64,000 nucleotides of DNA, taken from contig JBAXUE010000006.1 in NCBI GenBank assembly GCA_037129835.1, forward strand, positions 6,157-70,156, written 5' to 3'. Shown here one piece after another: positions 1-62,531 of the stretch (position 1 is its first letter; every line of letters starts with the position of its first letter). Source of the DNA: a bacterium (GTDB lineage Bacteria; Patescibacteriota; CPR2; UBA1875; CAIMLA01). A model generated the notes under the pieces. That model ran no database searches, was not told the DNA's origin, and saw only the letters and a program-made list of their open reading frames with translations. The translations under genes were made by a program, and so were the position numbers.

Positions 1-48
1 TCTTCCTGTCCACTAGAAAAGGGGCATTCACAGGCTTAATATATTTAA

Positions 49-336
49 ATGAAATCATATTATGTCTATATACTATCGAATAACAGTAACAGAGTTTTTT
101 ACACCGGTATTACTTCCAATCTGGTGAGAAGAGTATACGAGCACAGAAATAAACTTGTGGAGGGTTTTACTAGTAAATACAATCTAAGCAAACTAGTCTA
201 TTTCGAGGATACGGCTAGCGTTGAAACTGCTTTAGAACGAGAAAAGAAGCTAAAGAAGTGGAGACGCAACTTCAAGATAAATCTAATTTCCAAGACCAAC
301 CCAGATTGGCATGATTTGTACGATGATATAGTATGA
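49..336 (+). CDS. GIY-YIG nuclease family protein (small stand-alone, COG2827-like)
   Basis: 95-aa ORF with an N-terminal YYVYIL...GIT.N..RR..EH motif typical of the GIY-YIG catalytic core. The reading frame is clean. Confidence 0.8.
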   Translation: MKSYYVYILSNNSNRVFYTGITSNLVRRVYEHRNKLVEGFTSKYNLSKLVYFEDTASVETALEREKKLKKWRRNFKINLISKTNPDWHDLYDDIV

Positions 337-553
337 GAAGATCCCTGGTTTGCGGCCAGGGATGACAATGGGGGTTAGGATGACGGTGGGGTGATGGAGA
401 TCCTCGACCCCTTCTTTGCTCTTTGAGTTACGGGCGGGCAGGCAAGCTTGGGATGACGAAGGAGTAATACTCGGTCCGGCAGTTGCCGAACTTCGAACAA
501 TATAAAAGGAGCGCCTGAAACTAACTCAGGATGACGGTAAAGGAACCCCCCCC

Positions 554-3500
554 CTATCGCCCCATAAACCTATCGCCCAGCTTCCCAAAGAACTGATTAA
601 GCCGTCCGGTCCAAGCGAAAGTTTCTTCTAAAGACTTCAGAATAAGTTGCAGAATGGACTTCTCTTTGGTTGGTGTTACAAAGGTATAATCCTGTGATTC
701 AGTGATATTATTTCGTCTATCCTTAGATACCATCTTGTAGTGATAAGATGAAGCGGGTTTAAGCCCTTTGATAATAACTGTATGAGAATTATTGAGAGAG
801 GTATCTTCATTTGATTCATTGGAATAGTCATTTCCAAGGATTCCTTCACCATATTTTACTTGAGTAGAGGCTGGCTTGTTGGTCTGCCAAGAAACAATAA
901 TAGAAGACGTGGTATCACTTTCACCCATCGGTAATATATCCACCTTGGCATTAGTTATCTTTGGCCCTTCGGTATCTAGCGGAGTACGAATAATCTTGTC
1001 AGCATCAACTACTTCATTACCAGTCTCATCCTTGGCCACAATCTGATAATGATACTCTTGATTATCTAGAAGACTATCAACCTTAATCTGATGGGCCTTG
1101 GATACTCCTGTGATACCCCGCTTCTCACCATAAGCTGAGGTTACACCCCAATTAAGAATCGTCTCTGTATCAACATTTGTCTCCCAAGAGATTGTAACTG
1201 AATACGGAGTGACGTCTTTGACAGACATATTGCTTATTTTCGGTTTAATAACAGCCTTAAAAGAATACTCAGGTGACTGGTATTTAAAACCGTTTATATC
1301 TTCAGCAGCTACTATGTAATAATAAGTAGTCCCAGGAATTAAACCGGTTATTTGGATAACATGTCTGGTCGATATTTGATTATCAACAACTGAAAGATCC
1401 CTAGCACCAGGATATGTGCCATAATATACAGTCGCCTTAGTTGGTATAGCTGTTTCCCAGACTATCTGAGCCGTTGTGGCAGTGATGTTTCTGTCGGCAA
1501 TATTTGAAGCTTCGGGGGGGGCTGGTAAACTTACTAGAATCTGACTCAGAAGTCCAAAGCGATACCAGATTGTCTGTATAGGCGACATAACCATCAAGTG
1601 AGATAGCCTTTATCTTTACCAGGTAATTAGATGACGTGCGAAGTGGTGCGATATTCACCATATGGTCACAAAGTCTCACTTCTGCAATACTACCAGTACA
1701 AGAATACTTGCCCAGGTTACTTTCATTTATCGTAGCTGGTGTTTCGGCCTGTGAACCGTTATGTTCTCCGCTCGCTAAGGTATATTCTACAATATTCGTA
1801 TTTGATGGCATATTTGTAGACCAGTGAAGTTCTGCTGACATTGTAGACATCTTTGACTCTACTTGTTTATATGTAATAGTAAATTTTTCTGTCGATGCCC
1901 TTGGTAGAATATCATAAGATCCAACCCCACTATTTGAAGCAGTTGCCGCATTACCAAGTCTATTCCTGGAATATAGTGTATATTCATACTCAGTGCCTGG
2001 CTTAAGACCCTTGATTGTCGCTGTATGGCTTTTTGTAAATTCCGTATCTCCTGCTGCAACAAAAGCATCTTCCGTACCAGCTACCCTATATTCTACTAAT
2101 GAATCTGCGTCCTGATCAGTAACCCAATGCATAGTAAGTGACGAAACGCCCCTATACGTAATGGCTGCTTTTATGCCCCCGTTTCCTGATACTGGCATTA
2201 TTTTTGGCCAAGCATCAGTCGGATTTAAACTACCCATAGACTTATCGGTAACTTCACTTAGGTTATAAGGAGCTGTCATTACGCCATTACTAGTATAAGT
2301 ATTTATTGCCTGGCCACCGATATCTTTATCTCCAGTTTCGTCAGTTGTGCCATTATTAAAAACAAATACGGAACCAGAGTCGTCAACTGCTACTAATTTA
2401 TAGTAATATTCTTTATCGGCATCTACTCCTATCCCCAATCTATCTATGTAATAATTTGTACCAAGAGAAATTTCCTGATTTTCTGGATATGGAATATCTG
2501 GGTCTATGCTCCTGAGCGGGTTAGGGTTTTGCTCTGTACATTCTGTTGCTAAACCATAAGTACATATTTGCTCATAAAAAATTCCGGAAGTTATATCTAG
2601 TTCTCCTCCTGATCTATATATTCGGTATTCCTTAAAATCGTTAGCTCCTTTTCTCTTTGGAGTAGTTATTCTTTGCCAAGTAACAATATTCCGGTATTCA
2701 TTTGTTATATTAGGCGTAGAGGGGTCTTGGTCTGGGTGGATATCTTTTACATTTACACCTGTCACAATAGCTGGTTTAGTAACATCTGGAACAATATCCC
2801 AGCCGTAGCTTTGTATGGTATTAAACACCGTTGAGTGGCTTTGCGATTCTAGAACACCAGGAGATATCTCTGGATTTGTCCCCATTGCATATATTTCGTA
2901 TGTAAACTTGTCTGCATCCTGGCCGACTGGAATAGTATCAGTAAAGCAACGTGTCCCGTACTGCTTTGGCTCAAGCTCTCCATCACTGTCTGGGTCATAT
3001 TCTTTGTCAACCTGGAAAGGTGTTGTCATTTCGCCACAGCTAGGATCACCCGAATCTCTCGTATTACCTGGAATATTTAAACCAGTAACTCTAAATTGGG
3101 TTAGTTCTATAGGGGTTGGCTCAGATTCACTATAACGAAACACCTTATAGCCAGTAATAAAATTACCAACATCTTTTATAGTCGAACCTACATACTTTAC
3201 CTTTATGTCTTTTCCAACCCTCGTATTTGATATGTTTGGATCGCCACGGACTGCCTCTACGTTGACATAATATGGTGGATTCGGATATTTATCAGATAAG
3301 GTCTCTTTTTTCTCCGCATTAGAATCAATCGCTAAAGGATTATTGTTATTACTCAGATCATAAGCCTTGATCTTGAACCAATAATAAAATGGATTTGTGG
3401 AATCTTTGGGATCTAAGTCCAAAATAGCTGCCGTAGTATTAGTTCCATTTTCCTGGACCCTATAATCTTCGTAGGGTCCCGAAGAATCGCCCTTCGCATA

Positions 3501-6500
3501 ATAAATTTCGTATTTTTTTATTCCTGTTCCGTTGCCTTTAGGTAAACGGGTTAGATTATTCAAATCGCTTGCTGCATTCCAAGATAGATTGATCTGCTGT
3601 CTATTATTCGGGTCTAACCCCACGGCTGACAATTCTATTCCAGCCTCTGCGTCACAAGCTGTCAGATTTCCACTGCTATCATAGTGCGCCCAACAAGGAG
3701 CGGTTACATCTTTTGTCGTTGCAGAAGTGGCATTATTCATAATCAAATCATCATCAAAGGATTCACTAATAATATTTAACAAAGGTGTTCCATTAGCATC
3801 ATACTCAAATTGATTTCCATATATATCAATCGCCATTATCCGATAATAATATTTGGTATTATCGTTCAATCGGTCTACGGCTGTTCTGGCTGGTTTTATA
3901 ATCCGTTGTTCCTCCAATGGATCACTACCACTACCCATATCTATCAATATAGTTTTTGTTACTTCTGTTTGTAAGTTTGTATCATTATCGGTGTAATCAA
4001 GACTACCGCCTGCATCATTATATCCGACTAATAAATAATCATTAAAGTTACTACTGGCCGGTACAGTAGTTCGATAATATAAATAGCCCAAAACTCCACT
4101 AGAATCACTAGGAAGGTTCAGCGGGTCTAAGGAAATCTTGATAGAAAAGTCTTCCGTACCAGACGTAGCTGTGACATTTTTTGCAAAAGTAGGTGGATTA
4201 ATGTCTACAGTGGAAATACTTAGATGCCACTTTGAAGATGTTTGCCAACTACTACGGTTACCTACGTTATCCCAGACTCGGACTCTATATGTGTAGTCTT
4301 CTGAAGGGATAATCAGATGTTTTGGGTCGGTCGAATCAACACTATCAACAAAGTCTGTTAATTGTGAATTTGAAATATTCGGGAATGATTGATATCCACA
4401 ATCTTCTTCCATAGTGACATTCAAAGCATCTTCTGGACAACTGTCCCAATCGTTTGAGATAACAGTCCTTACGTCCCCTGTTTCCATCAAAAATTTGCTC
4501 TTGATCCGTTGTATCTCATATTTTTCTGTTGGGGACTCTTTATAAGAAGAAAGAGGGTCTACTGAGCCAGACATAGCATTTGTGTCATTATACAAACGAC
4601 TGTTTAGCCAACCCAGCTTAACATAGTCTGTATTCGACTCAGAAATGCTTATGCCAAAATTGGAATCTTTTACAGAAGATGGTGAATTTACATCATATCC
4701 GTAATACCAGCTCTCAGAAGAGCTCGTGGTATTACCACCAAAGTCTACTGCAGTCACTTTCCACTTATGATTACCGTTTGAGAGGACGGCCTGAGCTGTA
4801 GTCGATAGAGTAGTGGAAATTTTTATCTCTTTTTCACCAACATCTGTTATATCTCCATCAGAATTCTTATCTATCCAAAGCCAATATTCTTTGATCCCTA
4901 TAGTATCACCCGCAGCAGCCCACTCAAAAATAGGGTTATTATCTGTCCCCGACCACTGAGTGGTAGGACTCACTAGCGAGAAAGCAGTAGGGGGCTCTGC
5001 GTCGAGTGTAATAGAACGAGAAGTAAGCGCAGAACTCTCATTTCCTGCCGAATCAGTAAACTTAATATATACATTCTTTGCACTTATATTAGAGTTGCTA
5101 CCGCAGCCTGCATCACTCAAATCTACAGAAACTATATTGCTATCTCTACCAGAGACAAAACTACTTCCCGAAATAGTTGTCGTGTTGCACCAACTGGTCC
5201 CATCTAAAGATATTTTATAGTTAGCAAGATTTGAACCTCCAGTATCAGTAGCTGTAACATTGAGTCGAACGGTGTTGCTGTTACTGTATGTTGTACCGTT
5301 TGTAGCAGGGGTAATAACATTACCGCTCGTATCCCAAAAGCCACTAATAGTACTGGTAGGACCCGTACTATCTACCGTGACAGCAAACTGATTACCAGCA
5401 ACATTTTCGTTTCCTCCATTAGATGAGTTATCAACTCCCCTAACTGTGTAATAGTACGTCGTATCCGTAGGAGCTGTATCTGAATAAGAAGTACCTGTCA
5501 CAACACCAGCGGTGGATATCATCGTACCAAGTTGCCCGCTAGTAGCACTACGGTATACATTATAGCTAGCAACACTGGTCGCATTGTCTGTAGCTGCTGT
5601 CCAATGGAGAGAAACTGGATTCTTAGTAGCACTCGCACCGGTAAGCTCAGCGTGTAAGTCAGAAATGGTTGTTGGTGGCTGCGAATCTACTGCAAAAGAT
5701 GTAGTTGATACTGATGTTGATAGTTCCGCCTTGTCCTTAGCAGTTATACGAACTTTCACATTACTAGAATCAACAGCCGTCGGCAATGTCCAGCTATAGC
5801 TTCCTGAGTTGGCTATATTGGAAACTATATTTGTATAATTCGCACCATTATCAGTTGTATAGTCCAAAGTAATAGGCAGCGCCTTTAAGCCAGAGCTAGC
5901 ATCTGTAATCTTGGTCGTATCCCAAGTAATGTTCTTGGTAGTGCCACCCTTCCATTTTTCACTCCCAACTGGAGAGGTTATGGCTCCAGAAGCAACTGCA
6001 GGTACTGTGGTATCAAGGGTAAGAGAAGTCCTCGAGAATGTCTCTATAGAAATATCAAAAAGGCTTGGAGTGCTAACACCACCAGTAAGAGTCGCTTGAT
6101 ATTGAATATATTGCTTTCCATCAAAGGCATCCAGACTGCTCCCGTACACTACGGCTGAAGCAGCGCCCCAGGGGACATCTGAGAAATCTGATAAATTACT
6201 AGCCCTAACTTTTAAAGTAATCCCCGTACCAGCAGGACCGCCGTTTGCAGCGACAGATTGGGTAAGATTGAGCTTACCGTAAGCGATATTCGTCGTCGTA
6301 GCATTATTGACAGAAGAAGTAAAAATCCCAGATAACATGTAAATAGGTGCGCTATCGGCGACGCAACGTACATTGAGTACGTAGCTGGTTTTATTTACAA
6401 CCCCTTCATAGTTTGAGGCAAAATTATAAGCATACGCTTCGGTAGCATTTACCGACTCTGATGTCCAATAAGCGCCATAATTAATACTTAAACCACTAAA

Positions 6501-9089
6501 GTTATTCCCATATGTTGTTAGTCGACCGTTATAGATCTCATGAATTTCGGCTCTGTTGGGTAGCCGTCCGGGGCCCGTGATCGATGAACAAGTAGTGCCG
6601 GCTGCGTACCAGTTTGACGCAGACGAATCCTGATAATATACATACTTTCCGGCTAAAGCTGTACCACTTCTCCCGGCTGTCCAGACTGTGTTACTACCAA
6701 GGACGATCGTTCCGCCCGTAGATACTACATTGCTCAATTCTGGATATGGTGTTCTGGCTGTAAAATCAGCGTCACTGGTCTGACGGAACGCAATTACATT
6801 CCCCGCCTTATCCATCACCTGGGCATAGACATTCCTTGCACCATCGGTACCGCTATCTTTGGCACCTTTTATAAGATTCCAAGGATAAGTACCTGCCACA
6901 TCATAAGGCATCCAACAAACAGAATTTACCGTGTCCCAATATTTCGGTGTGGTACAGTTGCCCACATTGTCAGTGACTAATCCTGCGGAATCCGTAACCG
7001 TGCCCCAGCTTGAGCCATTATTTGAAAATCTAACATAAAGATTGGCAGGTAAAGGTGAAGATTTCACTGTCCCTGTGTCTGCAGCTGTGAGGTTGAGAGT
7101 AACTTCCTGGCTTTTGGCATACTTGGAACCACTTACGTCTGTAACATTACTACCAGTAACTGTAAAGGCTGATACAGCCGGAGAGTCCTGTTCTACTATA
7201 AATGTACCAGTGACATCACTCCATGGGCTCTGTACTCCAGCGCTATCTGTAAACCTTGCTTTCCAATAATAAGTATTACCCGATGTGAGTCCCGAAACAG
7301 TCGCTGTCAGGTTTGCTTGGTCTACATTGATAGTACCAGCTACTGTCGGATTAGAAATCGTAACACCACTTGGTACACCCGCTATTCCAGTGAAGCTTGA
7401 ACTTGTTTTTAACTCGATCTGTGGGGTGATAGCACCACTTGCTGTCGGGATACCGTTGAATACTAGCTTGGCAGTGGTTTCGTTAGTCGCGCCAGTGCTA
7501 ATAACCATGTCATTACTTTTTTTCGTAGTCAAAGTGGTCGGTTTTTCTGCTTCATTCCAGTTCAATTTGAGACTACTCAGAGTTGGAGTACCAAGTCCAG
7601 TAGAAGACTCAAGGCGCACCATTATATCAGCGTATCTGGCATTAGGCACACTCGCAGGTATAGTGTTTGAAACATTTGTATCGCCAGCAATACTACTGGT
7701 GCCAAAATAATTTGTTGTCCAAACATTCATATCTGAGACTACCCCATTTGGGCCATACCAGATAGCGGTATTGAATTCATCCTGTGGGCCATTGCCATTT
7801 GTATCAGCTGCCACAACGCGCAATCTGTATTTAACTGCTTCATTAGTCGCGACAGTATATACAGGCTCAAAAGTCGTAAACTTCGTAAGAAGAGCACCGA
7901 CTGTGGTACCTGTATCCAACCTGAGGCCAATATTTCCGACTGCAGTACCACCCATAACAGCTGGGGACTGGGATAGTAGGTTGCTGCCGGCCACTGGATA
8001 CTGACTTATATAATATATTTTGACTATGCCAGGACCGCTCGCACCACCATAACTGACACCATTTGCACCAACATTTATACTGAGGGTTACGCCAGCAATC
8101 GCACCGCTGATAGTACCGGAGATCAGACCGCCATAGCCGCCATTACCACCACTACCACCCGAACCAGTACCACCCGTTCCCCCTGCACTACCACCACCCG
8201 ATATATTGGCCGTTAGTGTTAGTCCTGTTGAGTTTGAAATGCTTGTCTGTCCAGGTAATCCGTCGTCACCCGCAGCACCATCGGGACCATAATCTCCTCC
8301 GCCTCCTCCAGTTCCACCCCCTGCTGTATATGTGATTCCGTTATAAGAAATACTGGATGGCCCTCCGGTTCCACCACCTCTACCAGCATAATGAGAATTA
8401 TAAGAACCGCCTGCCTCGCCGCCGCCGCCGCCAGCCCCATATATTTCTAGTGTCATCAAAGATACGTCGTTAGGAACAACAAATGTTTGGTCAGACCCAA
8501 CATTAAATATCTTTGTAAGAGTCGAGTAAATGCGGACGTTGTCGTCATTACCTGCGTCTCCGGGATCAATAGTCTTACCATTTCCAGACACTATCGCCTT
8601 TGTATTATTCGTAATAGCTGCCGTGGCTCCATCGTTGTTAGTAAAATCTTCTTTGGTAGTCCAAGTCTTCGAACTAGATTTTGCCAATGCGGCAGTAGGG
8701 TCAAATTGTTTAGTTTGTTGCATAAACAATAATACTATCAAAGCGACAGCAACACTGACATATGCCCCTCTTCTTATATGTTTGGGCTGGACACGTCGTA
8801 CTTTTGTTTTATTAACGACACCAGGACTAGCTTGTACGTGAATATTAGACTGATTTGTTGTATCTCTCGTTTTATTTAAAAATAATGGTATATGCAACCG
8901 GCTAAAGAAATTGCTTATTTCCCTAAACCACAAGTATGGTCTGTGAAATATATCGATAGCAATAAGCTTAATTTTCTTAAAATTATGCTTGGATAATCTT
9001 GATTTTCCTACATTAAAATAACCGTTGGTAGGCAGCCTCCTTAAAGCTCTAAGTCTTATCCTACTTGCATGAGCTTTATAAGGTTTCAT
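554..9089 (-). pseudogene. Giant (~2,890 aa if repaired) surface protein, paralog of 53214..62531, interrupted by a +/-1 frameshift inside a G8 homopolymer at 1514..1521
   Basis: ORFs 1437..9089 and 554..1597 overlap. Alignment to the paralog shows the correct frame switches exactly at the poly-G (…SKFTSPP / LPAPPEASNIADRN… against paralog …FTLAPASSNVAERN…). The protein has an N-terminal basic tail and one TM segment (VSVAVALIVLLF), a Gly-rich region, a DUF1566/Lcl-like segment (RLPNRAEIHEIYN…RCV), and many Fn3/Ig-like repeats. Its C-terminal ~350 aa are about 90% identical to the paralog. Confidence 0.75.
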
Positions 9090-9147: not shown

Positions 9148-10509
9148 TTATAGTTCAAAAACTGCTTCTTTAAACTGATTTCCTCTATCTTTATAGTTCT
9201 CAAATAAACCAAACGAAGCGGAGGCTGGTGAAAGTAGCACCACATCCCCTGATTCTGCCAGTTTCTCTACTTTTGTGATAATCTCTGACATTTTCGTCAA
9301 ACCCTCTACAATCTGTCCGTCGAACGCCTCCGGAATAGACTTTTTTATCTCTTCTGCCGTATCACCGATAATAATAATGGCTTTCACATTCGCATTGGCG
9401 ATCTTCTTGCCAAGCGCGGTAAAATCAGACTTCTTGCTGCTACCACCAGCGATGAGAATGATTGGTTCTGAAAACGAATCTAAGGCCGCTATTGCCGTCT
9501 CAGGCACAGTCGAGAAGCTATCGTTATAGTATTTAACGCCATTATGCGCCCTAACGAACTCTAGCCTATGCTCTAGACCCATAAAACCGATGAGGGTGTC
9601 AGTGACCACATCCAAGGAAACTCCCGCCACAGAGGCTGCAAGCACGGCAGCAGTAGCGTTCTCAAGATTATGTCTGCCCCTAAGCTGAAGATCGCTCGCT
9701 TTTACCCCCATTCTTTCGTTCTGATCATAATTGAGAACAATCTCATCTTTATCATTTACAAAACACCCGGCAACCTCTTTGAATCTACTAAAATATAGCT
9801 TATGAGATTTTGTCGCTTTTGTCATTTCTTTTGGAATATCATAATCGGCATTTATAACCGCATAATCACTTTCCTTTTGGAACCTTACGATATTCGCCTT
9901 TGATTGGCGATACTCTTCGGTATCTTTGTGATAATCTAGATGCTCACTTGTGACGTTGAGAAGTACTGCGATTTGAGGACTTTTTCTTGCTACTTGGAGC
10001 TGGAAAGAAGATAGCTCGAGAACCACTATAGAATCCACTTTCAAATCGTCTATAAAGGAAATAGCTGGAATGCCGATATTTCCACCGAGAAATACATCTC
10101 TGCCAGCGTGCTTCAGCATCTGATATATCATTGTCGATGTAGTGCCCTTACCTTTTGTCCCAGTAACGCCGATGATCGGCACCGGACAAAGGTCAAAGAA
10201 ATCCTCAATCTGGCTAGTAAATATAGTTCCATTCTTCTCGGCTTTTAAGATTTCTGGAATAAGAGGTGAAATCCCGGGGGTTTTATAGACAACATCAAAT
10301 TCTCCTAGGTGTTGTAGATAATCATCACCAAGAATAAGATTTTCTTCGATATATCTAGGATTTTTCTTAATGAAATCATTTCTAGACAACTTATCACAGA
10401 TGGTCGCGCTTATACCGTTTTTTTTCAAATATTCAAAAGTCGCCTGACCTTCAATACCAAAGCCAAGAACGCAAACTTGCTGATCTTTATATTTCTCGTA
10501 TAACTGCAT
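9148..10509 (-). CDS. murD: UDP-N-acetylmuramoyl-L-alanine--D-glutamate ligase
   Basis: N-terminal Rossmann motif VLGFGIEGQA, P-loop GVTGTKGKGTT, LGGNIGIP, and a MurD-like C-terminus SPASASFGLFENYKDRG. It lies next to murI, which makes D-Glu. Confidence 0.9.
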   Translation of the reverse strand: MQLYEKYKDQQVCVLGFGIEGQATFEYLKKNGISATICDKLSRNDFIKKNPRYIEENLILGDDYLQHLGEFDVVYKTPGISPLIPEILKAEKNGTIFTSQIEDFFDLCPVPIIGVTGTKGKGTTSTMIYQMLKHAGRDVFLGGNIGIPAISFIDDLKVDSIVVLELSSFQLQVARKSPQIAVLLNVTSEHLDYHKDTEEYRQSKANIVRFQKESDYAVINADYDIPKEMTKATKSHKLYFSRFKEVAGCFVNDKDEIVLNYDQNERMGVKASDLQLRGRHNLENATAAVLAASVAGVSLDVVTDTLIGFMGLEHRLEFVRAHNGVKYYNDSFSTVPETAIAALDSFSEPIILIAGGSSKKSDFTALGKKIANANVKAIIIIGDTAEEIKKSIPEAFDGQIVEGLTKMSEIITKVEKLAESGDVVLLSPASASFGLFENYKDRGNQFKEAVFEL

Positions 10510-17677: not shown

Positions 17678-18844
17678 TCAGAATTGTCGGTACTCTAATA
17701 CTAAGGTGTTATATTCTTTCACGGTACTGTTATATATATCAATATCTGTTTTTGCAGTATTATATGCTGTCGTATAGATATTATACATTTGAGAATAAGT
17801 AGCGAATGATTGTGCTGTAGGATTTTTTGTATAATCATTTTCTGCAGAGTTAAGATCAGTTTCTGCGCCGACTAATTTTTCTTTAGATTCAAGATATTTA
17901 GTTTTTAACGAGTCTAGCTTGGGAGCATATCCTTCAAGCTGTTTCCTTAAGGTTATTCTTGTTATTATTCTTTGATATTCATTCCCTGCCGAAGAAATAG
18001 GTACGACTAGGCTAGGAGATGTTAGCGCCACCTTTACTGCCTCGGTAGCTGGTTGGTTTTCTGTTGCTATCGCAACAGAATCAAAATTATTAATCGCTAG
18101 ACCCTCGCTGGGGTTTAAATCTGGGACATCCCCGACTAGGAAATTAGTTCCAGTCAATTCTAAAATAGCATATTTAGTTCCAAAATCGCCATAGCCATCT
18201 GGGACACCTACCCCGACCGACATATGACGCTGTGAGTCAAACTCCAATAAAGATGTTTTATAGCCAAGTTGTTTAAAAAGCAATGAACCTAAATATGACT
18301 TATCTGTACAAATTCCTATCCCATCATAAAGAGTTTCATAAGGAAGTCTTGGCACCAACTGATTTACTGGATACCGAGTACTAGTATCTAGAACTTTTGT
18401 AGCCTTCGCTGTATCATATGGCATGCTTTGTAAAAAACATGCAGCTAGGTCTAGTGTCTGATCTTCACTTAAATTATTTGTCTTACCAACTGTCTTAATC
18501 TTCATTGCCATATCAGCAATAGTCGGATCGTTCTTATAGGCGTAGACGAACTTTTCATTTTTATTGTTGTAATAGGCGTACAATTTTTGAGGATCGGCTT
18601 TATAGTAATTATACAAACTAGAATATACTGTTTCTGTTATCGAAAGTTTTTTGCCGTGGTAGTCACAATTCAGTGTTATTGCTTTAGGGCCTGTTAATTT
18701 AGGATAAGGGCGAATAACGGCAATTATTGCGTTTGAAGCCGGATTGCTTTCTACCCTACCATCCAAGGTTAAATATACAAAACACCCTGTCGCCACAAAA
18801 AACAATAATACGAATGAAGTAATTGTAATTAGTTTCTTTTTCAC
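17678..18844 (-). CDS. Secreted/lipoprotein with a transglutaminase-like (Cys-His-Asp) core and a C-terminal coiled-coil
   Basis: N-terminal signal or TM segment with a lipobox-like VATGC. GICTDKSYLGSLLFKQLGYKTSLLEF…HMSVGV matches the TGase-like Cys…His spacing. Confidence 0.45.
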   Translation of the reverse strand: MKKKLITITSFVLLFFVATGCFVYLTLDGRVESNPASNAIIAVIRPYPKLTGPKAITLNCDYHGKKLSITETVYSSLYNYYKADPQKLYAYYNNKNEKFVYAYKNDPTIADMAMKIKTVGKTNNLSEDQTLDLAACFLQSMPYDTAKATKVLDTSTRYPVNQLVPRLPYETLYDGIGICTDKSYLGSLLFKQLGYKTSLLEFDSQRHMSVGVGVPDGYGDFGTKYAILELTGTNFLVGDVPDLNPSEGLAINNFDSVAIATENQPATEAVKVALTSPSLVVPISSAGNEYQRIITRITLRKQLEGYAPKLDSLKTKYLESKEKLVGAETDLNSAENDYTKNPTAQSFATYSQMYNIYTTAYNTAKTDIDIYNSTVKEYNTLVLEYRQF

Positions 18845-26712: not shown

Positions 26713-26789
26713 GACCCGGTAGCTCAGCTGGTTAGAGCGCCGCCCTGTCACGGCGGAGGTCGCCGGTTCGATCCCGGTCCGGGTCGCCA
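26713..26789 (+). tRNA. tRNA-Asp (anticodon GTC)
   Basis: GACCCGG-TA-GCTC-AGCTGGTTA-GAGC-G-CCGCC-CTGTCAC-GGCGG-AGGTC-GCCGG-TTCGATC-CCGGT-CCGGGTC-G-CCA. Cloverleaf with a GGTTCGATCC T-arm. Confidence 0.88.
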
Positions 26790-29300: not shown

Positions 29301-29348
29301 AAGGCCAATGGTAGATTAATAGAGCAGAGAGCTCTTGGACATTAAAAA

Positions 29349-30412: not shown

Positions 30413-30425
30413 GAAAAGAGGGGCA

Positions 30426-53213: not shown

Positions 53214-56200
53214 TCATTTCCCAATAAACCTATCACCGAGCTTCCCAAAGAACTGATTTAGTTTCCCAGTCCAAGCGAAAGTTTCTTCTAATGATTTAAG
53301 AATCAGTTGAAGGATTGATTTCTCTTTAGTTGGTGTTACAAAGGTATAATCTTGAGATTCAGTAATATTAGTTCTTTTGTCTTTAGAAATCATCTTATAA
53401 TGATAAGACGAAGCAGGTTTGAGACCTTTAATTATAACGGTATGTGAGTTATTAAGTGACGTGTCTTCATTTGACTCATTTGAATAATCTCCCCCAAGGA
53501 TCCCTTCACCGTATTTCACTTGTGTAGACGCAGGCTTATTGGTCTGCCAAGAAACTATAATAGAAGACGTAGTGTCGTTTTCTCCCATCGGTAGGATGTC
53601 TACTTTGGCATTGGTAATCTTCGGTCCTTCGGTATCTAAGGGCGTTCTTACTATCTTGTCAGTATCTGCGACTTCATTACCAGTTTCGTCTTTGGCAAGG
53701 ATTTGATAGTGATACTCTTGGTTATCTAGAAGGTTTTCAATCTTAACTTGATGGACTTTAGATACTCCGGTAGTCCCTTTCTTCTCGCCATAATTGGTAG
53801 TGGTACCCCAGTTGATGATTGTTTCAGTATCGACGTTGGTTTCCCAAGCTACTGTAACAGAGTAAGGAGTGATATCTTTCACTGACATGTTAGATATCTT
53901 TGGTTTTAAAACAGCGGTAAATGAGTATTCTTGAGAAGTATACTCTACCTCGTTAGCATCTTTAACTCTAACTCTATAGTAGTATTTGGTACCGGGTATT
54001 AGACCTTCGATCACCACTACATGAGAGCCGACTAGGTCATTATTACCTGCAGCGCCGTCATAGACTCCAGATGTAGTGGAGTAATCTACCCATGAGGTGG
54101 TAGGACTCTCTGTCTGCCAGACTATTTGTGCTGTTGTGGCTGTAATATTACGTTCTGCGACATTTGATGATGCTGGGGCTAGAGTGAACTGAGCTGAATC
54201 AAATGATTTGGTCTTGAATGTTGCAAATTCACCGGCTGGGTATTCGGCAAGATAGCCATCTTCTGAAATAGATTTGATCTTATAGGTATAGGTTCTAGCC
54301 GATCTTAATCCCTTGATCACCACTTTATGGTTTCTTGGACTTGAAGAAAGTGCAGCAGGTTCGACACCAGCTGTTCCACCTTGAGCATCGTCGCCTGGTT
54401 GTTTTTGCAATTGATACTCCACAAAAGCAGATGAGGCGTCAAGATTTGTGGCCCAAGCTATAGTAGTTGTAGAAGTGGTGGATGATACTGCGCCTGCTGT
54501 GATATTGAAGCCGGTGGTGGTGAGAGAAGGAAGCTGTGCTCCTTCTGCTGATACTGGGTTACCCAATGCGTTACCCGATGCAATAATATAATCATATGTA
54601 GTATTTGGACTAAGTCCAAAGAGCTCTACTGTGTGGTTTTGAACCATCCCCAGTCCTCTGCTATTATCACCTACACCTATTTGCTTATATGGATCACCGC
54701 TTCCAGATTTTCTAAAAGATACCATAGAGTCGCAATCTTGATCCGTTGTCCAAGTTACAGTGGCCGTTGCTACACCAACACTAGTTAAAATTGCTTTAAG
54801 CCCATTATGTTGATCTAGAATACTTGGTTTCGCTATGTATGGGTTAAGAGAAACTGATACAATCTTGCCGTCACTGCCAATATCGGGTTTCGATTCATTG
54901 AAATAGTTCGGATTGATGATGGTGTTTTGGTTTGGTGCGTTGTACTTATAAGTATCTCCAGAATCATCAGAAGCGGTAACGTGATAATAAAAGAACTTAT
55001 CTGACTCTGCCTGAGACCTAGGAATAAGATCCATATAATAGTTATTTGTTAGGGCTATCTCTTTGTCTGCATCATAAAGAGGGTTTGGATACTGGGTAGT
55101 ACAAGAAGGCAATAAAATAGTTGTTGTACCATTCTGACATATTTGTTCCCAAAGACTTCCGTCATTGATCGAGCGATATATCTTATACTCCTTAAAATCG
55201 TTAACCCCATTTCTAAGTGGAGTGGCTATCCTGGCCCAAGTGATGATATTTCTTCTGAAGTTGGTACCATCATCATGGATATCTTTAACCTTAACTAGCG
55301 AAGGAAGAGCCGGAGCAGTAGCATCTGGGGTGGTATCCCAACCAAGGTGAAGGGTACCAGGAGCAACAACAGAAAGACCAGAAAAAAGATTAGATTGAGA
55401 CGGTTGATTCGGTACAACAGTATTATCCTGGGCCCAAACACGATAATAGTAAGTAGTGGAATCCGTCAGGTTTATGTCAGTTATGGTGTGCGGAACTGTT
55501 CTGTCGTCTGGTGTCGGGGTAATATTTATAGTCTGTATTTTTGTAGCAGTATTTACTCTGACCCAACAATCTGATACTTTTTCTCCTGGGTTACAATTCC
55601 CGGCGATATTGGTGGTTGTCCTGTATACTTCGTATTTAACGATTTTATTAGAATATGAACTTGAACCAGTAAATGTTACTTCGGCTGTATGTCCGACAGC
55701 ATTATTTGTATTTGGGTCTCCCTTTGTGGTCACAACATCGATGTTTGCGGGGACACTAGGAACTTTTGAAGAATAAGTTACAACACTTGAAGTTTCAGAT
55801 AAGTCTGAAAGTACTGATTCTTTGGGAACACTATCATAGGCAGAAACGCGATAATAGTAATTAGTAGTATCGGCTAAACCTTCATCATTAAAGCTTGTAG
55901 CTGTAGTGGTTTTGATTGGAGCAATATCCCATGGACCGAGATCCGAAGTAGACCGATAGACATGATAGGTAATAGTCCCAGGTACGATATCTTCACTTCT
56001 GGCTTTGTAATCATTCGATGCACCCCAAGAAACATTAATCATCTGACTCTCGTTGGAATTATCTAGCCCTTGTGCGTTTGCAACCACATTGTTTGGCACA
56101 GTTGGTGCCGTAACATCTGGAGTGCCTGGAGTAGTTCGGGCAAAGTTCTGGTCTGGGGAAACAAAATTTGAATCACCAGATGCAGGTACGAGTGAAGTCT

Positions 56201-59200
56201 CATTACCAATAGTAGCACCATCAACAGCGGTAATTCGATAATAATAGGTCGTTGAATCATTTAGTCTAGTTGTTGCAGCTGGCTTGTCTGCACCATAGGT
56301 TGTGTCATTATGAGCATCGTTATCATACCAAAGAGTGTTTTCTAAACCAGTTGGGGTATAAAGAACACCAACAACTACCCAAGAAGCGAGATCGGATTCA
56401 TTTGTTGTTCGATATATTTTATATTTAGCGACACCGGAACCATTATCGTCGGCTGCAGTCCAAGTAATCTTAGTTGAAAAGCCTTTGGTGTTATCATGGG
56501 CAGTTGGTGTATCGCTATCAGTCGCGTCGCAGGTTGCTCCGGTCCCATCACAGGCAGTTGCGCCTTTTCCGATTCCGATTTTTGGTGGGACTTCTGGATC
56601 TGCTACATCTCTGGTTAAAGCATATAAAGGTGCATTTTGATAGTTACCATAAGTTGGGTTGGATTGATCTCGTGCCGAGATACGATAGGCATAGCTAGTA
56701 CTAAGACTGATGAGCGGTTGACCCTGTTTTGCCAAAAGAGCATCATCAACAAATGTAAGTTCCGTAGTCGTGTACTTTGCATAACCTGCGAGAGTTGACC
56801 AGGCGGTTGTCTCGTCTGTGAGACCAGGATACACGGATTTTTCTACTCTCTCTATCTTGTAGTTTAATAGTGGAGCGCCACTATTAGTTGGGACCGCATT
56901 CCACTTGAGTTTGATCTGAGTATCTGGAAATTCTGGAGTTTCTGATACAAAACCAGTAACTGCGGATGGTAGTGATTTATCGAGATTATACTGAAAAGTA
57001 GTGATGTTATTTGAAATATAGCCAACATTATCAACTGCGACAACCCGGAGATAGTAGATACCGTCAATTGAACTAGCTAGGTCAGCTGTTAGGTGAGGTG
57101 AATTGCCGGGAGTCGGAGTAGTTGGGGTACAGTTTGAATCTGTTGTTAGACAATATCTATATGTCGCGATACCAGAGCCAGTGTCGTCAGCTACCCACTC
57201 AAAATATGGTGCCGTATATGGATACCAGGTAGTTGTATTGTCAGCAGTGATATTATGAGTTTTTGTTGCATTTTCGTATGCTTCAAGGCTAGTGACATCT
57301 GTTGGGACCGAGGTATCAACAGAGAGAACAACTGAAGTTGCTCCCGTGACTGAGTTATCTGCGACATCAGTAGTGATGACACGATAGTAGTAGGTGCCTT
57401 CAGCCAAAGAGGCGTTATCGGCATAGCTCACCGTACTAGCATTTGTAATATGAGCATTTGGATCGGATATATCAGTAAATGTTCCACCAGAGCCTACCTT
57501 TCTTTGCAACTGATATGAGCCAAAGCCAGATGATGGAGCGGGGTCAGAGAAAGAACTCCAAACAATGGTCTGATTACCTGTATTGTTCGGATTTGGAGTA
57601 ATCGAAGAGATAGAATTAGCCGTTGGCAGAGTATTATCAACAACGATAGTCCCAGTCTGCTGAGTCGCTGAATTTCCAGAACCGTCGGTAGCATCTACTT
57701 TGTAGGTATACGAACCATCAACAACAAAAGCTACTGAGTCATTCTTACCATCCCAGTCTACGGTATGTACTCCTTGAGTTTGTGAGACATTATTAGACAG
57801 TATTCTAACCAAAGTTACTCCGCTATAGATTCTGACAGTAGTATTGGCATTACCAGTCAGATTATCAGCTAAAGTGTATGTGATAGTGGCAGTATCTTTG
57901 TTGCCAACCGACGCATTTGGAGAAAATGGAGTTGGCGTAACAGAAACGGCAGTAATAGTTGGGGAAGTTGAGTCGATAGTGAAGTTCGCGTCCGAGACAT
58001 CGCTTGCATTATTACCTACAGCATCAAAAGCCGTCAAACGAACAGAGACAGTCGCTAAATTTAGCGAAGGGACCGGATTCCAAGTGTATACACCGGTGTT
58101 GGCCGTACCCGTAGTGATACTAGTCCAATCAGTTCCATTGGTTGAGTAGTCAAGTTGAATCGGTGGTGTTGCAGTACGAAGTCCTGAACCTATACCATCA
58201 CCTATAGACCCGCTGTTCCAGGTGATGCTTTGAGATGAACCACCTTTCCACTTCTCTCCGCCATTTGGAGCAGTGAGAGTAGAGGAAGTGACTGTTGGTG
58301 CCTGTGCATCGACGGTGATGGAGGCTTTGTCGAAGCTATTTAGAGTCACACTAGTAAGCTGGGGATATGTACTACCACCACCGAGTGCTAATGTGGCTTG
58401 ATATTGAACATATCTTTTGCCAGCGAGAACTGCGCTTACTTCATTTCTAGTAACTGTAGTCCAGCCGTTACTGTTAGTCCATGTACCATCTGGGGTAGCT
58501 GTATTACCTGCTTTTACTTGCATAGTGATAGTACCTGGAGACGTAACAGTATTCCAGTCTACGCTAGTGAATGTCTTGGTAGCACCCATGTCTTTGACTG
58601 GGGAGATGAAGGTACCGGCGGTGCCGGAGCCGCCAGGACTTACCGAGCCATCTTGAATACATCTGGTGTATTTTACCGAATCATAAAGATTATTTTTAGT
58701 TGAATATGATTCTGTGGCACCATACATCCAAGTTATAAACCGAAAAATCTTTACATTGATAGTATTTTCTTCGGTAGCGGAATAATACCAACCATCAGAT
58801 GTAAAAGAACCGTAATGACCCGCTCTATACCCAGCGTAAATTGCTTTAATTTCGTCCACACGGGGAAGACGACCTCCGAGCGCTTTACACGCGGCTTGTG
58901 CAGGATAAGAGGTGAAGTTTTCTGATGGAAATATCTGAGGGCTAACGAGTGAATAATTCGAAGGAAAAACTAAATCAAGACCAGTATTACACTGGGGGCT
59001 TCTACAATCAGTTATTGCGTCTTTCCAAATAATACCGGACAGATCTTGGTTATAAACTGATTTTCCTACTAATGTAGCAGGATAATTAGTTTCTGCTTGA
59101 CCCGCCAGCCAAGGACCTGTAGCACAAACTCCTTCACTTACATAACCGCTAACACATTCTGTCCCAAGTGTGGCCGCCACGCCATTGGCTTTCAGTAACT

Positions 59201-62200
59201 TAACACCAGTATTTCCAGGATTTAAGGCAATGTCTGTACCTCTAGTGCCTGTCGAGTAGTCTGTTGTTGTCGACGGAACAGTTCCGCTCACATTACCCGC
59301 ATTGTCCCTATATTGAGCATAAAGTGTTTTGGCACCATCTCCAACAGAGAGTGTCCAAGGCTTAGATGCGAGGTATGGTAACCAATCTGTACCTGCTGGG
59401 TCAAATGTGCCCGTTTCTGAGAATCTCATCTGCCCAACACCAGCTCCACCAGTATCTGCGGTGGTATTTGTGAGAGTTACTGTACCAGAGGTAGCATAAG
59501 CTGCTCCGCCATTTATAGCTACAGTACCTGTAGGAGCTGTTTGTTCTACGGAGAAGTCTGCTTGGGTGACATCGGTATTTCCACCATATGATTGCCAAGG
59601 AGACACACGTCCTTCATTGTCTTTTGAACGAATGCGGAAGTGATATGCTCCTACTGCTAGATTTGGAATAGTCACAGTAGAGTTTGAGTTATCAGGAGCA
59701 TCACCTACGATGAGGTTCGTTGATTCGTTCGCAAATGCGGTGTTTACTGGGTTGTATTGTAGCTCTATCTTTCTACTAGTAGAAGTACCACAAGCAGTAC
59801 AGGTAAGGCCTGTCGTTTTTACTTTGATAGTAGATTCTGAGGTCCAAGCAGCAGATAGGCCAGCAGTCACGTTATTTCCAGATGAGTTCTTCAGAACTGT
59901 AGTTCCGTCACTTCGATACATGGTAGTTAAGCTGTTTTGTGGAGTTTCAATGGAATCATAGGTAAGGGTAACATCAGAGAGAACTGGGGTATTAGAACCA
60001 TCTCCTTCAAAACGAACAAGTATCTCTGAATATCTTTTGTTTCCGATGGTATTTAGGATAGAGGTGGCTGATTTGGTAGGATTTGGCGGATCTGCCCCGT
60101 TATATGACTGTGAGAAGAAGCCTCCAGAGTTTGTCCACCAAGAAGAACAGGCTCCACTTCCACTTGGACCATAACAAAGTGAACTATCAAGACCTGTCTG
60201 GTCATCACCCGCCCTAACAGTAAAGAGAATCTTTTGACTTGTTTTGTCTGTTGTACCATTCCAGTTAATAGCAGAAGGCTTTGCTTTGTTTCCGATTCCT
60301 CCAGTGGTTTCCGCATCAAAACGAAGACCGATGTTTCCAGCGACAGCACCACCCAATGAACCAGAAGTACTATACGTCACATTATTTACTGTGACAGAAT
60401 TTAAAGTTGGAACATTATTATTATTTGAAGAAAGAAGAGTTGCTCTGTATTGAAAATACCGACCAGAGAAAGAAGCGAGAGAACCACCATTTGTTACTGC
60501 GCCCCATGCTTGCCAGGTGCCATCGGGAGTGGCAGTAGTACCAGATCGAAACTCCAACGTTATCGAAGTATTTGCCTGCAGTGTTTCTGTCCAAGAGAGA
60601 GTCGAGTATCCAACTGGAGTTGTATTGTCTTTGACTTGGGAGGTGAAGGTACCGGGAGAGCCACCGGAAGAGCTGGAGCTATTTTTTACACACCTAACAC
60701 TAGTTGTAGCCCCTACGTTTTTCCAATAACTTTGCTGACCCGCTGCATAAAACTGAAATGTATTAACGTAATTGCTATCGACTTCAGTGGCGGATAAATA
60801 ATAACCAGAATATTGACTTTCAGCAAAGTTGTTCCCATATATGGCTCGTCCTGTGTAGATAGCCGAAAGTTCCGTCATTGTTGGCAATCTTCCACCGATA
60901 GCTTTACACGCTGCTTGCGTTGGATATTCCGTAAATAGTTCAGACGTGAATACCTGGGGGCTTACTAAAGAATATTTATTATTGTAGGGTGCTGCATCAA
61001 GGCCTATTGAACATTGCGGTGAAACACAAGAAGTATTGGAAGTTTTCCATTGATAAGGCCCCGAGGCAAGATCAGATCTATATACTTGCTTTCCTTCAAG
61101 TGCGGTGCCAACCGAGCCCAGATATCCCCAATTTGCACAAACCCCACCGCTTCTATAACCACTCGCACACTCGGCATCAGCCGCCGCTGTTGCCCCAATT
61201 GGCTTCAAAAGATACACGGTGTTTGTCCCAACTGCTGTATTTGATTGAGTCCCTGCTGTGAAGTTCGCTGTAGTGTTTTCGGTCGTTGGGGTGCCAGCTG
61301 AAGATGGGAGTTTTGGATCACCATTATTTAGATTAAGCGCAGCCAATGCCGAAGTGAGATATCGTACAATAACAACCCCAGAACCTCCAGACATACTAGT
61401 GCCGCCACCACCGCCTGTGTTGGGAGTCCCAGCAGTTTGTCCACCTAAATACCAACCTCGACCGCCACCTCCATTTCCACCTAAGGCATAATTTAAAGAC
61501 CCTCCTGCTCCACCTCCACCTCCATAGTAAAGGGAAGCTCCCGTGATGCTATTGGCTACTCCCACTCCACCTGCGCCAGCTTGAGTGTTGCTTGCATTTG
61601 CGCCCGCAGCCCCAGCCCCACCGCCACCCCCACCAGCCCACTGGTTATTCGGGCCATAATAAATACCATTACCACCATTGTATCCCTGAGTACCAGCACC
61701 TCCCAGAGTAGCAGAAGAAGCTGCTGTACCACCTCCGCCACCAGAAGCACCACTAAGACCGGCTGTAACCCCGTCTGACGCTCCCCCACCACCCAGCGCT
61801 GTAACACTTGAAAATACCGAGCTTTGCCCATTAGTAGAGGCGGCACCACCATTCCCAACAGTAACGGTGTAAGTTTGTGGGGTAACAGGCACAGAAGCAC
61901 TGTAGACTACTCCTCCAGCTCCGCCGCCGCCACCACCACCGTTATATCCGCCGCCACCACCACCGCCGCCGCCAACAACAAGAGAAGAGACAGAAAGACT
62001 GGCCCCCGTAACCACCAACGAACCCGAGCTAGTAAATTTATGAATGGTATATAATCCATCGGTTGTTACTGTACCTCCCGTAATCGATGGGGTTATTGTC
62101 ACATTCCCTGTCCCCCCATTATTATTCGTAAAATCAGCTAGGGTATTCCAGGTTTTTGAGAGATTACTAGCCAAAGACTCACCCGGTCTAAAAATATTTA

Positions 62201-62531
62201 GATATGGTGATACAAACTGAATACCGGTAAAAAGAATCAGAGATACAAAAAAAGCGGTCACTGTCGCTCTAGCGACCGGTTTTGTAGCTGGATGTTCTGA
62301 TACTTTCTTATAGCTAGGACTGTTGGTAACGAGTACGTCGTGATATTTACGAATGTTTAGATGAAGTTTATAGGTAAGTTCATAACGTAGTAGCGCGGCT
62401 TTGGCTATGATGAATGAAAGAAACTTAACTAAATATACGCCAAAAAAGCTAGAAATAGCTACAAATGCTTTCTTGTAGAAACGCTTATTATCCTGAGAGC
62501 TAGGTTTTTTTACCAAACTCCCTCCCTTCAC
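53214..62531 (-). CDS. Giant (3,105 aa) surface protein: N-terminal basic tail + TM anchor, Gly-rich region, two DUF1566/Lcl-like lectin segments, many Fn3/Ig-like repeats
   Basis: Uninterrupted 9.3-kb ORF. TM segment VTAFFVSLILFTG, a conserved post-TM motif LSKTWNTLADFTNNNG, long poly-Gly runs, and two …GGRLP(T/R)…E(L/I)…RC(V/I) segments. It is the intact paralog of 554..9089. Confidence 0.9.
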   Translation of the reverse strand: MKGGSLVKKPSSQDNKRFYKKAFVAISSFFGVYLVKFLSFIIAKAALLRYELTYKLHLNIRKYHDVLVTNSPSYKKVSEHPATKPVARATVTAFFVSLILFTGIQFVSPYLNIFRPGESLASNLSKTWNTLADFTNNNGGTGNVTITPSITGGTVTTDGLYTIHKFTSSGSLVVTGASLSVSSLVVGGGGGGGGGYNGGGGGGGAGGVVYSASVPVTPQTYTVTVGNGGAASTNGQSSVFSSVTALGGGGASDGVTAGLSGASGGGGGTAASSATLGGAGTQGYNGGNGIYYGPNNQWAGGGGGGAGAAGANASNTQAGAGGVGVANSITGASLYYGGGGGAGGSLNYALGGNGGGGRGWYLGGQTAGTPNTGGGGGTSMSGGSGVVIVRYLTSALAALNLNNGDPKLPSSAGTPTTENTTANFTAGTQSNTAVGTNTVYLLKPIGATAAADAECASGYRSGGVCANWGYLGSVGTALEGKQVYRSDLASGPYQWKTSNTSCVSPQCSIGLDAAPYNNKYSLVSPQVFTSELFTEYPTQAACKAIGGRLPTMTELSAIYTGRAIYGNNFAESQYSGYYLSATEVDSNYVNTFQFYAAGQQSYWKNVGATTSVRCVKNSSSSSGGSPGTFTSQVKDNTTPVGYSTLSWTETLQANTSITLEFRSGTTATPDGTWQAWGAVTNGGSLASFSGRYFQYRATLLSSNNNNVPTLNSVTVNNVTYSTSGSLGGAVAGNIGLRFDAETTGGIGNKAKPSAINWNGTTDKTSQKILFTVRAGDDQTGLDSSLCYGPSGSGACSSWWTNSGGFFSQSYNGADPPNPTKSATSILNTIGNKRYSEILVRFEGDGSNTPVLSDVTLTYDSIETPQNSLTTMYRSDGTTVLKNSSGNNVTAGLSAAWTSESTIKVKTTGLTCTACGTSTSRKIELQYNPVNTAFANESTNLIVGDAPDNSNSTVTIPNLAVGAYHFRIRSKDNEGRVSPWQSYGGNTDVTQADFSVEQTAPTGTVAINGGAAYATSGTVTLTNTTADTGGAGVGQMRFSETGTFDPAGTDWLPYLASKPWTLSVGDGAKTLYAQYRDNAGNVSGTVPSTTTDYSTGTRGTDIALNPGNTGVKLLKANGVAATLGTECVSGYVSEGVCATGPWLAGQAETNYPATLVGKSVYNQDLSGIIWKDAITDCRSPQCNTGLDLVFPSNYSLVSPQIFPSENFTSYPAQAACKALGGRLPRVDEIKAIYAGYRAGHYGSFTSDGWYYSATEENTINVKIFRFITWMYGATESYSTKNNLYDSVKYTRCIQDGSVSPGGSGTAGTFISPVKDMGATKTFTSVDWNTVTSPGTITMQVKAGNTATPDGTWTNSNGWTTVTRNEVSAVLAGKRYVQYQATLALGGGSTYPQLTSVTLNSFDKASITVDAQAPTVTSSTLTAPNGGEKWKGGSSQSITWNSGSIGDGIGSGLRTATPPIQLDYSTNGTDWTSITTGTANTGVYTWNPVPSLNLATVSVRLTAFDAVGNNASDVSDANFTIDSTSPTITAVSVTPTPFSPNASVGNKDTATITYTLADNLTGNANTTVRIYSGVTLVRILSNNVSQTQGVHTVDWDGKNDSVAFVVDGSYTYKVDATDGSGNSATQQTGTIVVDNTLPTANSISSITPNPNNTGNQTIVWSSFSDPAPSSGFGSYQLQRKVGSGGTFTDISDPNAHITNASTVSYADNASLAEGTYYYRVITTDVADNSVTGATSVVLSVDTSVPTDVTSLEAYENATKTHNITADNTTTWYPYTAPYFEWVADDTGSGIATYRYCLTTDSNCTPTTPTPGNSPHLTADLASSIDGIYYLRVVAVDNVGYISNNITTFQYNLDKSLPSAVTGFVSETPEFPDTQIKLKWNAVPTNSGAPLLNYKIERVEKSVYPGLTDETTAWSTLAGYAKYTTTELTFVDDALLAKQGQPLISLSTSYAYRISARDQSNPTYGNYQNAPLYALTRDVADPEVPPKIGIGKGATACDGTGATCDATDSDTPTAHDNTKGFSTKITWTAADDNGSGVAKYKIYRTTNESDLASWVVVGVLYTPTGLENTLWYDNDAHNDTTYGADKPAATTRLNDSTTYYYRITAVDGATIGNETSLVPASGDSNFVSPDQNFARTTPGTPDVTAPTVPNNVVANAQGLDNSNESQMINVSWGASNDYKARSEDIVPGTITYHVYRSTSDLGPWDIAPIKTTTATSFNDEGLADTTNYYYRVSAYDSVPKESVLSDLSETSSVVTYSSKVPSVPANIDVVTTKGDPNTNNAVGHTAEVTFTGSSSYSNKIVKYEVYRTTTNIAGNCNPGEKVSDCWVRVNTATKIQTINITPTPDDRTVPHTITDINLTDSTTYYYRVWAQDNTVVPNQPSQSNLFSGLSVVAPGTLHLGWDTTPDATAPALPSLVKVKDIHDDGTNFRRNIITWARIATPLRNGVNDFKEYKIYRSINDGSLWEQICQNGTTTILLPSCTTQYPNPLYDADKEIALTNNYYMDLIPRSQAESDKFFYYHVTASDDSGDTYKYNAPNQNTIINPNYFNESKPDIGSDGKIVSVSLNPYIAKPSILDQHNGLKAILTSVGVATATVTWTTDQDCDSMVSFRKSGSGDPYKQIGVGDNSRGLGMVQNHTVELFGLSPNTTYDYIIASGNALGNPVSAEGAQLPSLTTTGFNITAGAVSSTTSTTTIAWATNLDASSAFVEYQLQKQPGDDAQGGTAGVEPAALSSSPRNHKVVIKGLRSARTYTYKIKSISEDGYLAEYPAGEFATFKTKSFDSAQFTLAPASSNVAERNITATTAQIVWQTESPTTSWVDYSTTSGVYDGAAGNNDLVGSHVVVIEGLIPGTKYYYRVRVKDANEVEYTSQEYSFTAVLKPKISNMSVKDITPYSVTVAWETNVDTETIINWGTTTNYGEKKGTTGVSKVHQVKIENLLDNQEYHYQILAKDETGNEVADTDKIVRTPLDTEGPKITNAKVDILPMGENDTTSSIIVSWQTNKPASTQVKYGEGILGGDYSNESNEDTSLNNSHTVIIKGLKPASSYHYKMISKDKRTNITESQDYTFVTPTKEKSILQLILKSLEETFAWTGKLNQFFGKLGDRFIGK

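Follow-up and report, generated by a model that had tools for sequence, protein, structure and literature searches.

The systems closest to the locus described here are the poly-G/C contingency loci of Campylobacter jejuni, Neisseria, Haemophilus and Helicobacter. G/C runs of at least 7 are treated as candidate phase-variable tracts, and all tracts of at least 8 vary in C. jejuni NCTC 11168 (PMC6321876). Gene A, a giant gene of ~8.5 kb on the minus strand of a 64,000-nt stretch of bacterial DNA (the window; positions are those of the whole stretch), shares several features with these loci: a G/C run (C8 on the coding strand) lies in the frame of a surface gene, in a low-GC genome otherwise without such runs; one slippage step would switch the product from long (ON) to truncated (OFF) or back; and the gene belongs to a paralogous surface family. 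In contrast to these loci, no tract-length polymorphism is demonstrated for gene A, and its tract is common to no relative. The tract also lies near the 3' end, where it removes a C-terminal module without aborting translation early, and the host is an uncultivated member of the Patescibacteria/Candidate Phyla Radiation (CPR).

Genes frameshifted at homopolymers are also found in Buchnera and Blochmannia, in which poly-A-interrupted genes are partly rescued by polymerase slippage; these cases concern long A/T runs and many genes per genome. Gene A is comparable in being an otherwise intact gene of a small-genome bacterium that is interrupted at a homopolymer only, but it carries a C8, and the A8/T8 runs of the window are all in frame. 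A further comparison can be made with +1-prone CCC-C proline sites (tRNA-Pro/m1G37/EF-P), CCC-C being a known +1-slippery context for tRNA-Pro (PMC7577736). Gene A likewise needs a +1 shift, and its CCC CCC C is followed by a rare codon. It exhibits no conserved two-frame arrangement and no structure and, unlike prfB, no in-frame stop and no obvious upstream Shine-Dalgarno stimulator.

Results

The reading frame of gene A changes within a C8 tract

In the NCBI metagenome-assembled genome (MAG), the halves of gene A are annotated separately, as MEI6267070.1 (2,550 amino acids (aa), identical to the upstream open reading frame (ORF)) and MEI6267069.1 (331 aa). These are two pieces of a single gene. 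The downstream ORF (1597..554, minus strand) comprises 347 aa and overlaps the upstream ORF at 1437-1597. Homologs match the upstream frame (frame A) up to ...SESDSSKFT and the +1 frame (frame B) from ...PEASNIADRNITATTAQ / ...PEASNIADRNITATTAQIVW. The coding strand at this point reads AAG TTT ACC AGC CCC CCC C GAA GCT and, as the match to frame A ends at the tract and that to frame B starts there, the frame change is confined to AGC CCC CCC C GAA. Both this C8 tract (G8 on the plus strand) and a second, C9 run on the plus strand are located where the first-pass annotation had placed them, and its claim that the frame changes within the G8 homopolymer is borne out by the homology.

Deletion of one base from the tract yields a single ORF of 2,844 aa in silico, with the peptide FTSPPEASNIADR spanning the repaired junction. 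Tracts of C4, C7 and C10 give products of 2,843, 2,844 and 2,845 aa, which are all in frame and differ from each other only by Pro residues in an inter-domain linker; C8 gives 2,550 aa and C9 gives 2,542 aa. The frame is therefore repaired only by the loss of one nucleotide (C7), by the gain of two (C10), or at C4. It had been proposed that gain or loss of a single nucleotide would restore a protein of ~2,890 aa: loss does restore the frame, but gain leads to the 2,542-aa product and the restored length is 2,844 aa. The tract encodes an S-P-P linker, variable in sequence among homologs, between two FN3-like domains, and sits 89% along the gene.

This indel is the single lesion in 8.5 kb: no further stop or frameshift is observed, and the 1-kb downstream frame is fully open. 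The inferred non-synonymous divergence (dN) on the gene A branch is ~0.118 upstream and ~0.124 downstream of the tract, with no downstream excess, in a comparison where synonymous divergence is saturated and to which a very recent relaxation of selection would be invisible. As the downstream kilobase shows neither a stop nor an excess of non-synonymous change, the lesion is either recent or reversible.

The two ORFs form one genuine gene, gene A, for a membrane-anchored surface protein of ~2,844 aa. The N-terminus of this protein comprises a cytoplasmic stretch followed by one transmembrane helix, or hydrophobic segment, at aa ~105-125, beyond which ~2,700 extracellular aa contain Gly-rich, Lcl_C-like and FN3-like domains. 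Judged from these domains only, the product probably functions as a membrane-anchored, FN3-rich surface giant. The part located 3' of the tract was modelled as three tandem FN3 domains followed by two helices (mean predicted local distance difference test score (pLDDT) of 83), and the best PDB matches of this C-terminal model are tandem FN3 fragments of fibronectin. The two helices are formed by the motif KEKSILQLILKSLEETFAWT..NQFFG and constitute a conserved helical tail. Conservation within the family peaks in this C-terminal 320-aa module, with 78% identity to the paralog vs 34% just upstream.

The final ~40 residues (TPTKEKSILQLILKSLEETFAWT.NLNQFFG..G.R; window 554-680, minus strand) are near-invariant, whereas homologs are overall just 40-55% identical. 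Their model, two helices, is of low confidence (pLDDT 52-64), and they may act as an anchoring, secretion or oligomerisation signal.

Table 1. Coordinates in the window of gene A, its homopolymer tracts and the reference paralog.
Feature	Position	Strand	Remarks
Upstream reading frame of gene A	1437..9089	minus	2,550 aa as it stands
Out-of-frame tail (last 30 codons of the upstream ORF)	1437-1513	minus	SFKYCR...
C8 tract on the coding strand (G8 on +)	1514..1521	minus	frame changes here by +1
3' part of gene A, +1 frame	554..1513	minus	formally open from 1597; TAG at 554-556
G9 tract on the coding strand (C9 on +)	546..554	minus	shares its first G with the end of the TAG stop; rest in the 3' untranslated region
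Terminator-like hairpin	514..530	minus	CCTGAGTTAGTTTCAGG then CGCTCCTTTT; 16 nt past G9
Intact paralog	53214..62531	minus	3,105 aa; in-frame reference; last ~320 aa 78% identical to gene A

Long G/C runs cluster at the junction of two giant surface genes

C8 and C9/G9 are the only G/C runs of at least 7 in the window, the next longest being 6 (G6/C6 at 22571, 28697 and 62112). It had been noted that such runs are rare in this AT-rich genome, and this stands as a count; dinucleotide shuffles yield on average 0.68 matches to G8 in 64 kb, with at least 3 in 6 of 100 shuffles, and by composition alone the occurrence of C8 and C9 is not extreme. The census was extended to 78.7 kb of the source contig (the window, L001 and L101, which together represent 82% of this one contig). 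G/C runs of at least 7 are limited there to C8, G9 and a G7, which all lie within 1.7 kb, at the junction of gene A and the giant surface gene that follows it in tandem (gene C). Within this 82% of one contig, long tracts are non-randomly tied to surface genes and avoided elsewhere. The loci of relatives, ~240 kb in total, contain three G/C 7-mers and nothing longer.

Codon usage does not favour such a tract. CCC is used less than any other Pro codon (10-13% of Pro codons), all other Pro-Pro pairs in the two giant genes are encoded by CCA/CCT/CCG and not by CCC CCC, and no G-runs are used there to encode stretches of Gly as long as 9 residues. The significance of the C8 tract stems from three observations: the ~10-nt interval in which the frame changes is also the site of the sole long G/C run in coding sequence, no G/C run of at least 8 is found in ~240 kb of relatives, and the runs are clustered.

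The tract is specific to this lineage

The nearest named genomes with this family are Candidatus Saccharibacteria and Patescibacteria MAGs, with 51-56% aa identity, which places the organism in the CPR. The paralog and all relatives that cover the junction (14/14) are read in one continuous frame through it. The closest orthologs, L002 (77% aa identity) and L011 (74% aa identity), exhibit ACN ATG TCA CCY GAA (T-M-S-P-E) at the tract site vs ACC AGC CCC CCC(C) GAA here. As the tract is absent from the relatives, the run is lineage-specific. It had been suggested that related genomes be inspected for variation in tract length, but L002, L011 and 12 others have no tract at the site. Relative to the orthologs, the tract arose by ~5 C/G-ward substitutions within 9 nt and one extra C.

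The C-terminal module of gene A (554-1513 vs 53214-54170 in the paralog) shows 78% aa identity to the paralog, and the corresponding values for L002 and L011 are 69-70%. This higher likeness suggests past gene conversion between the paralogs.

The tract lengths agree among four assemblies

Four assemblies, which represent at least two sequencing runs and two assemblers, were compared: ENA ERZ27300174 (contig k141_341801) and ENA ERZ27300165, both MEGAHIT contigs, and the Logan contigs of SRR7053572 and SRR7053528. The window comes from k141_341801, which is 96,110 bp long. No publication on the runs turned up in the literature searched. The other three copies are 100%, 100% and 99.985% identical to ERZ27300174 (0-1 mismatch over 3-9 kb). 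C8 and G9 are present in all four, and G7 is present wherever the contig reaches it (L006 stops before the G7 site). The JGI and NCBI versions also encode the identical 2,550-aa protein. MurD, MurI, IleRS, Ddl and the remaining genes of the window are intact, and its seven A8/T8 runs (among them 10418-10425 and 32410-32417) are in frame. The four assemblies derive from one clonal population and give the consensus sequence only, which does not display minority tract lengths.

The sole difference among them is one A/T single-nucleotide polymorphism in ERZ27300165, at L001 19126 (36 nt beyond the window start), which is intergenic and located upstream of the third giant gene.

A possible reversible slippage switch and the alternatives

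The most likely reading is a reversible slipped-strand ON/OFF switch, since a tract length of 8 is within the hypermutable range of other bacteria and a single step repairs the frame; our confidence in it is somewhat less than even. The dominant genotype carries one extra C in the lineage-specific poly-C tract (C8 instead of the in-frame C7), a change of the kind made by replication slippage. In the C8 state, translation would go out of frame in the linker that precedes the three C-terminal FN3 domains and stop 30 codons later, and the resulting 2,550-aa product would keep the N-terminal anchor while losing the most conserved C-terminal module of the family. One slippage step, from C8 to C7, would restore the full protein. 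The locus would thus be a long/short switch of the contingency-locus type, caught OFF in every available sample. We infer that the extra C originated by slippage, that it would revert at a useful rate and that the organism may use the switch.

Several features point to such a switch: the tract length of 8, the clean in-frame alternatives, the single lesion, the codon-disfavoured origin, the cluster of G/C runs and the fact that the product is a surface protein with paralogs. Features of phase-variable loci are found here, namely a G/C run of at least 7 in coding sequence, a toggle between full-length and truncated forms, and a surface product, the latter deduced from its domains. A wider proposal is that the poly-G/C tracts of this genome are true contingency repeats, in which C8 would reversibly add or remove the distal module of a giant FN3 protein and G9 and G7 would belong to the same hypermutable hotspot as C8; taken jointly, these claims are possible but doubtful.

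Other observations weigh against a switch. The full-length 2,844-aa in-frame protein is not among ~15 billion predicted proteins, which is a low-power test. A homology search also gave no near-identical fragment in frame, but as it missed the proteins of the window itself, it carries no weight. Owing to the position of the tract at 89%, the OFF state still costs the cell a 2,550-aa protein, unlike in most known contingency genes. The C-run is absent at the tract site from the paralog, from L002 and L011 and from 12 other relatives, the closest of which have ~77% aa identity and therefore provide a weak test of tract conservation; the tract thus gives no indication of having been maintained over long times. 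No tract-length variation is seen among the four consensus assemblies, and both Logan contigs are continuous through the tracts that they cover. The locus had been described as a classic signature of phase variation. This is correct with regard to the indel in a homopolymer, the surface giant and the ON/OFF register in silico, but the invariant length, the lack of a relative with the tract, its 3' location and the non-coding nature of C9 make phase variation a reasonable hypothesis only.

A recent and effectively fixed truncation, giving a young pseudogene or a shortened gene, fits the data almost as well as the switch and is nearly as likely, which makes it a distinct possibility, short of probable. 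A one-off slippage insertion in a chance-grown C-run would have become fixed in a clonal population, and the cell would make the 2,550-aa form only, or none, with the 3' kilobase decaying and as yet free of further lesions. The uniform C8 in four assemblies, the lack of the tract in every relative, a 3'-located lesion that is atypical for a switch and the two separate proteins of the NCBI annotation are all in line with this explanation, and the loss could be buffered by the paralog, with its 78%-identical C-terminal module, and by the third family member next door. The previously mentioned option of a genuine pseudogene is correspondingly sound in that the frame is disrupted by one frameshift relative to intact homologs, but there is no second lesion in 8.5 kb, the 347-codon downstream frame is open in a 40% GC genome, and no sign of relaxed selection, as excess non-synonymous divergence 3' of the tract, is observed. 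Moreover, a C8 is intrinsically revertible, so that being fixed is a matter of rate, and a truncation leaves the C-ward origin of the tract and the clustering of G/C runs unexplained.

Alternatively, the full-length protein could still be made from the C8 allele by recoding, the frameshift being leaky rather than null. The mechanism would be +1 ribosomal slippage of tRNA-Pro on CCC CCC C, the rare CGA occupying the A site, or else RNA-polymerase slippage on the C-run. The required shift is indeed +1, CCC and CGA are both rare codons here, and low-level read-through into the correct frame may take place at CCC CCC CGA. Nevertheless, the site is unconserved, as no slippery run is present in the orthologs and paralogs, which all keep a single frame, and it has no in-frame stop. 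No RNA structure downstream of the tract (z = 0.06) and no Rfam match were found, and no obvious Shine-Dalgarno-like element is present upstream of it. Recoding is further disfavoured by the low basal rate of +1 slippage when m1G37 and EF-P are normal, and by the fact that transcriptional slippage is known chiefly from A/T runs. Since the orthologs are in frame with ACN ATG TCA CCY GAA, a conserved recoding site is excluded; a conserved programmed frameshift was rejected on the basis of the in-frame orthologs and paralogs, the lack of RNA structure and the lack of an Rfam match. Recoding of any kind is, in our view, improbable.

A homopolymer sequencing error had also been mentioned as a possibility. 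Homopolymers are a classic error site and the data are consensus contigs, but a sequencing or assembly error, with a true tract that is in frame, is the least probable explanation and highly unlikely: C8, G9 and G7 have identical lengths across the two ENA assemblies and the Logan contigs of two runs, the JGI and NCBI versions share the 2,550-aa protein, and neither the seven A8/T8 runs nor any housekeeping gene of the window is out of frame.

The G9 run and the 3' end of gene A

The G9 tract is absent from the paralog and from the relatives. The TAG of gene A occupies the same codon position as the TGA of the paralog and the TAG of the orthologs, and homology ends at the stop. As G9 starts with the G of TAG, its length has no effect on the stop or on the protein. 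The first-pass annotation had correctly noted that C9 abuts the stop, whereas the CCC that it reported at this position in the paralog is an alignment artefact, located 30 nt past the paralog stop at non-homologous positions. A coding role for C9/G9 was rejected, the run following the TA of TAG and the stop being at the ancestral codon position; G9 is not part of any coding switch.

The terminator-like hairpin located past G9 (Table 1) opens a series of GTCATCC-type hairpin repeats. On the minus strand, window ~360-545 (L001 18548-18730), comprising the 3' untranslated region and the intergenic region past gene A, is filled by a CCGTCATCC-type motif in four copies, several with short hairpins of their own. 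Similar repeats are present past the homolog of the gene in L019; in L022 they are found between tandem giant genes, and two of them have a C7 run between them.

Two other repeats are found within gene A. A (GGC)5 trinucleotide repeat (window 8418-8432, minus strand) encodes GGGGG in the Gly-rich domain, and changes in its length would keep the frame. At the extreme end of the gene, the 10-nt string GGGCGATAGG occurs twice on the minus strand (window 553-562 and 569-578, 16 nt apart); the first copy encodes G-D-R and the second supplies the TAG stop in another register, which could be due to chance.

Neighbouring genes and elements

An ORF of 95 aa with a GIY-YIG nuclease domain (PF01541, E = 2.9e-15) is located at window 49-336 on the plus strand. 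It is flanked by 31-nt inverted repeats, 94% complementary (TGTCATCCCTGGCCGCAAACCAGGGATCTTC), at window 337-367 and at L001 19085-19115, the second of which covers window 1-5 and extends beyond the window start. Together they look like a small mobile cassette between two giant genes. The idea that G9 and G7 are target-site duplications of this cassette is not supported, because its inverted repeats (L001 18723-19115) are well inside the interval between the G runs (18536-18544 and 19202-19208).

The start codon of the next gene is separated by a single base from the G7 run (TTTGGGGGGGTATG; run at L001 19202-19208, 113-119 nt beyond the window start). This gene is the third giant family member, gene C (L001 19210-25329), which comprises at least 2,040 aa and is truncated by the end of the contig; its ATG is preceded by TTTGGGGGGGT. 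With its very short spacing, G7 could serve as a G-rich Shine-Dalgarno sequence; in other genes here, GAGGG or AGGGG is found 2-4 nt before the ATG. The product of gene C comprises an RCC1-like beta-propeller head (PF25390, E = 3e-102) and shares the FN3-rich stalk architecture of gene A, with 24% identity over 850 aa.

Elsewhere in the window, a tRNA-Asp gene (26713-26789, plus strand) overlaps a 545-aa serine-recombinase-like ORF (26748-28385, minus strand) at its 3' end, beyond which two DNA-methyltransferase-like ORFs and a 913-aa helicase/restriction-like ORF are found (30426-36328). Based on these resemblances, the region 26713-36328 may be an integrated element with a restriction-modification system.

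Discussion

The CPR/Patescibacteria are mostly uncultivated episymbionts, whose attachment to hosts may well be mediated by giant surface proteins, the prime candidates for this role. No report of phase variation by simple-sequence repeats in this group was found in the literature searched. If the reversible switch were confirmed, the CPR would have in gene A their first case of slipped-strand phase variation, affecting a giant surface protein of the kind thought to mediate host attachment. If the tract does not switch, the locus is an ordinary young frameshift in a redundant family, and the result is mainly a correction of the annotation. At best, this is poly-G/C translational phase variation, a known kind of mechanism, in a phylum for which the literature searched gave no report of it. 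A tract that does switch would indicate that the CPR share the stochastic ON/OFF strategy with Campylobacter or Neisseria, and it would mark the C-terminal module, comprising three FN3 domains and the conserved helix, as functionally important.

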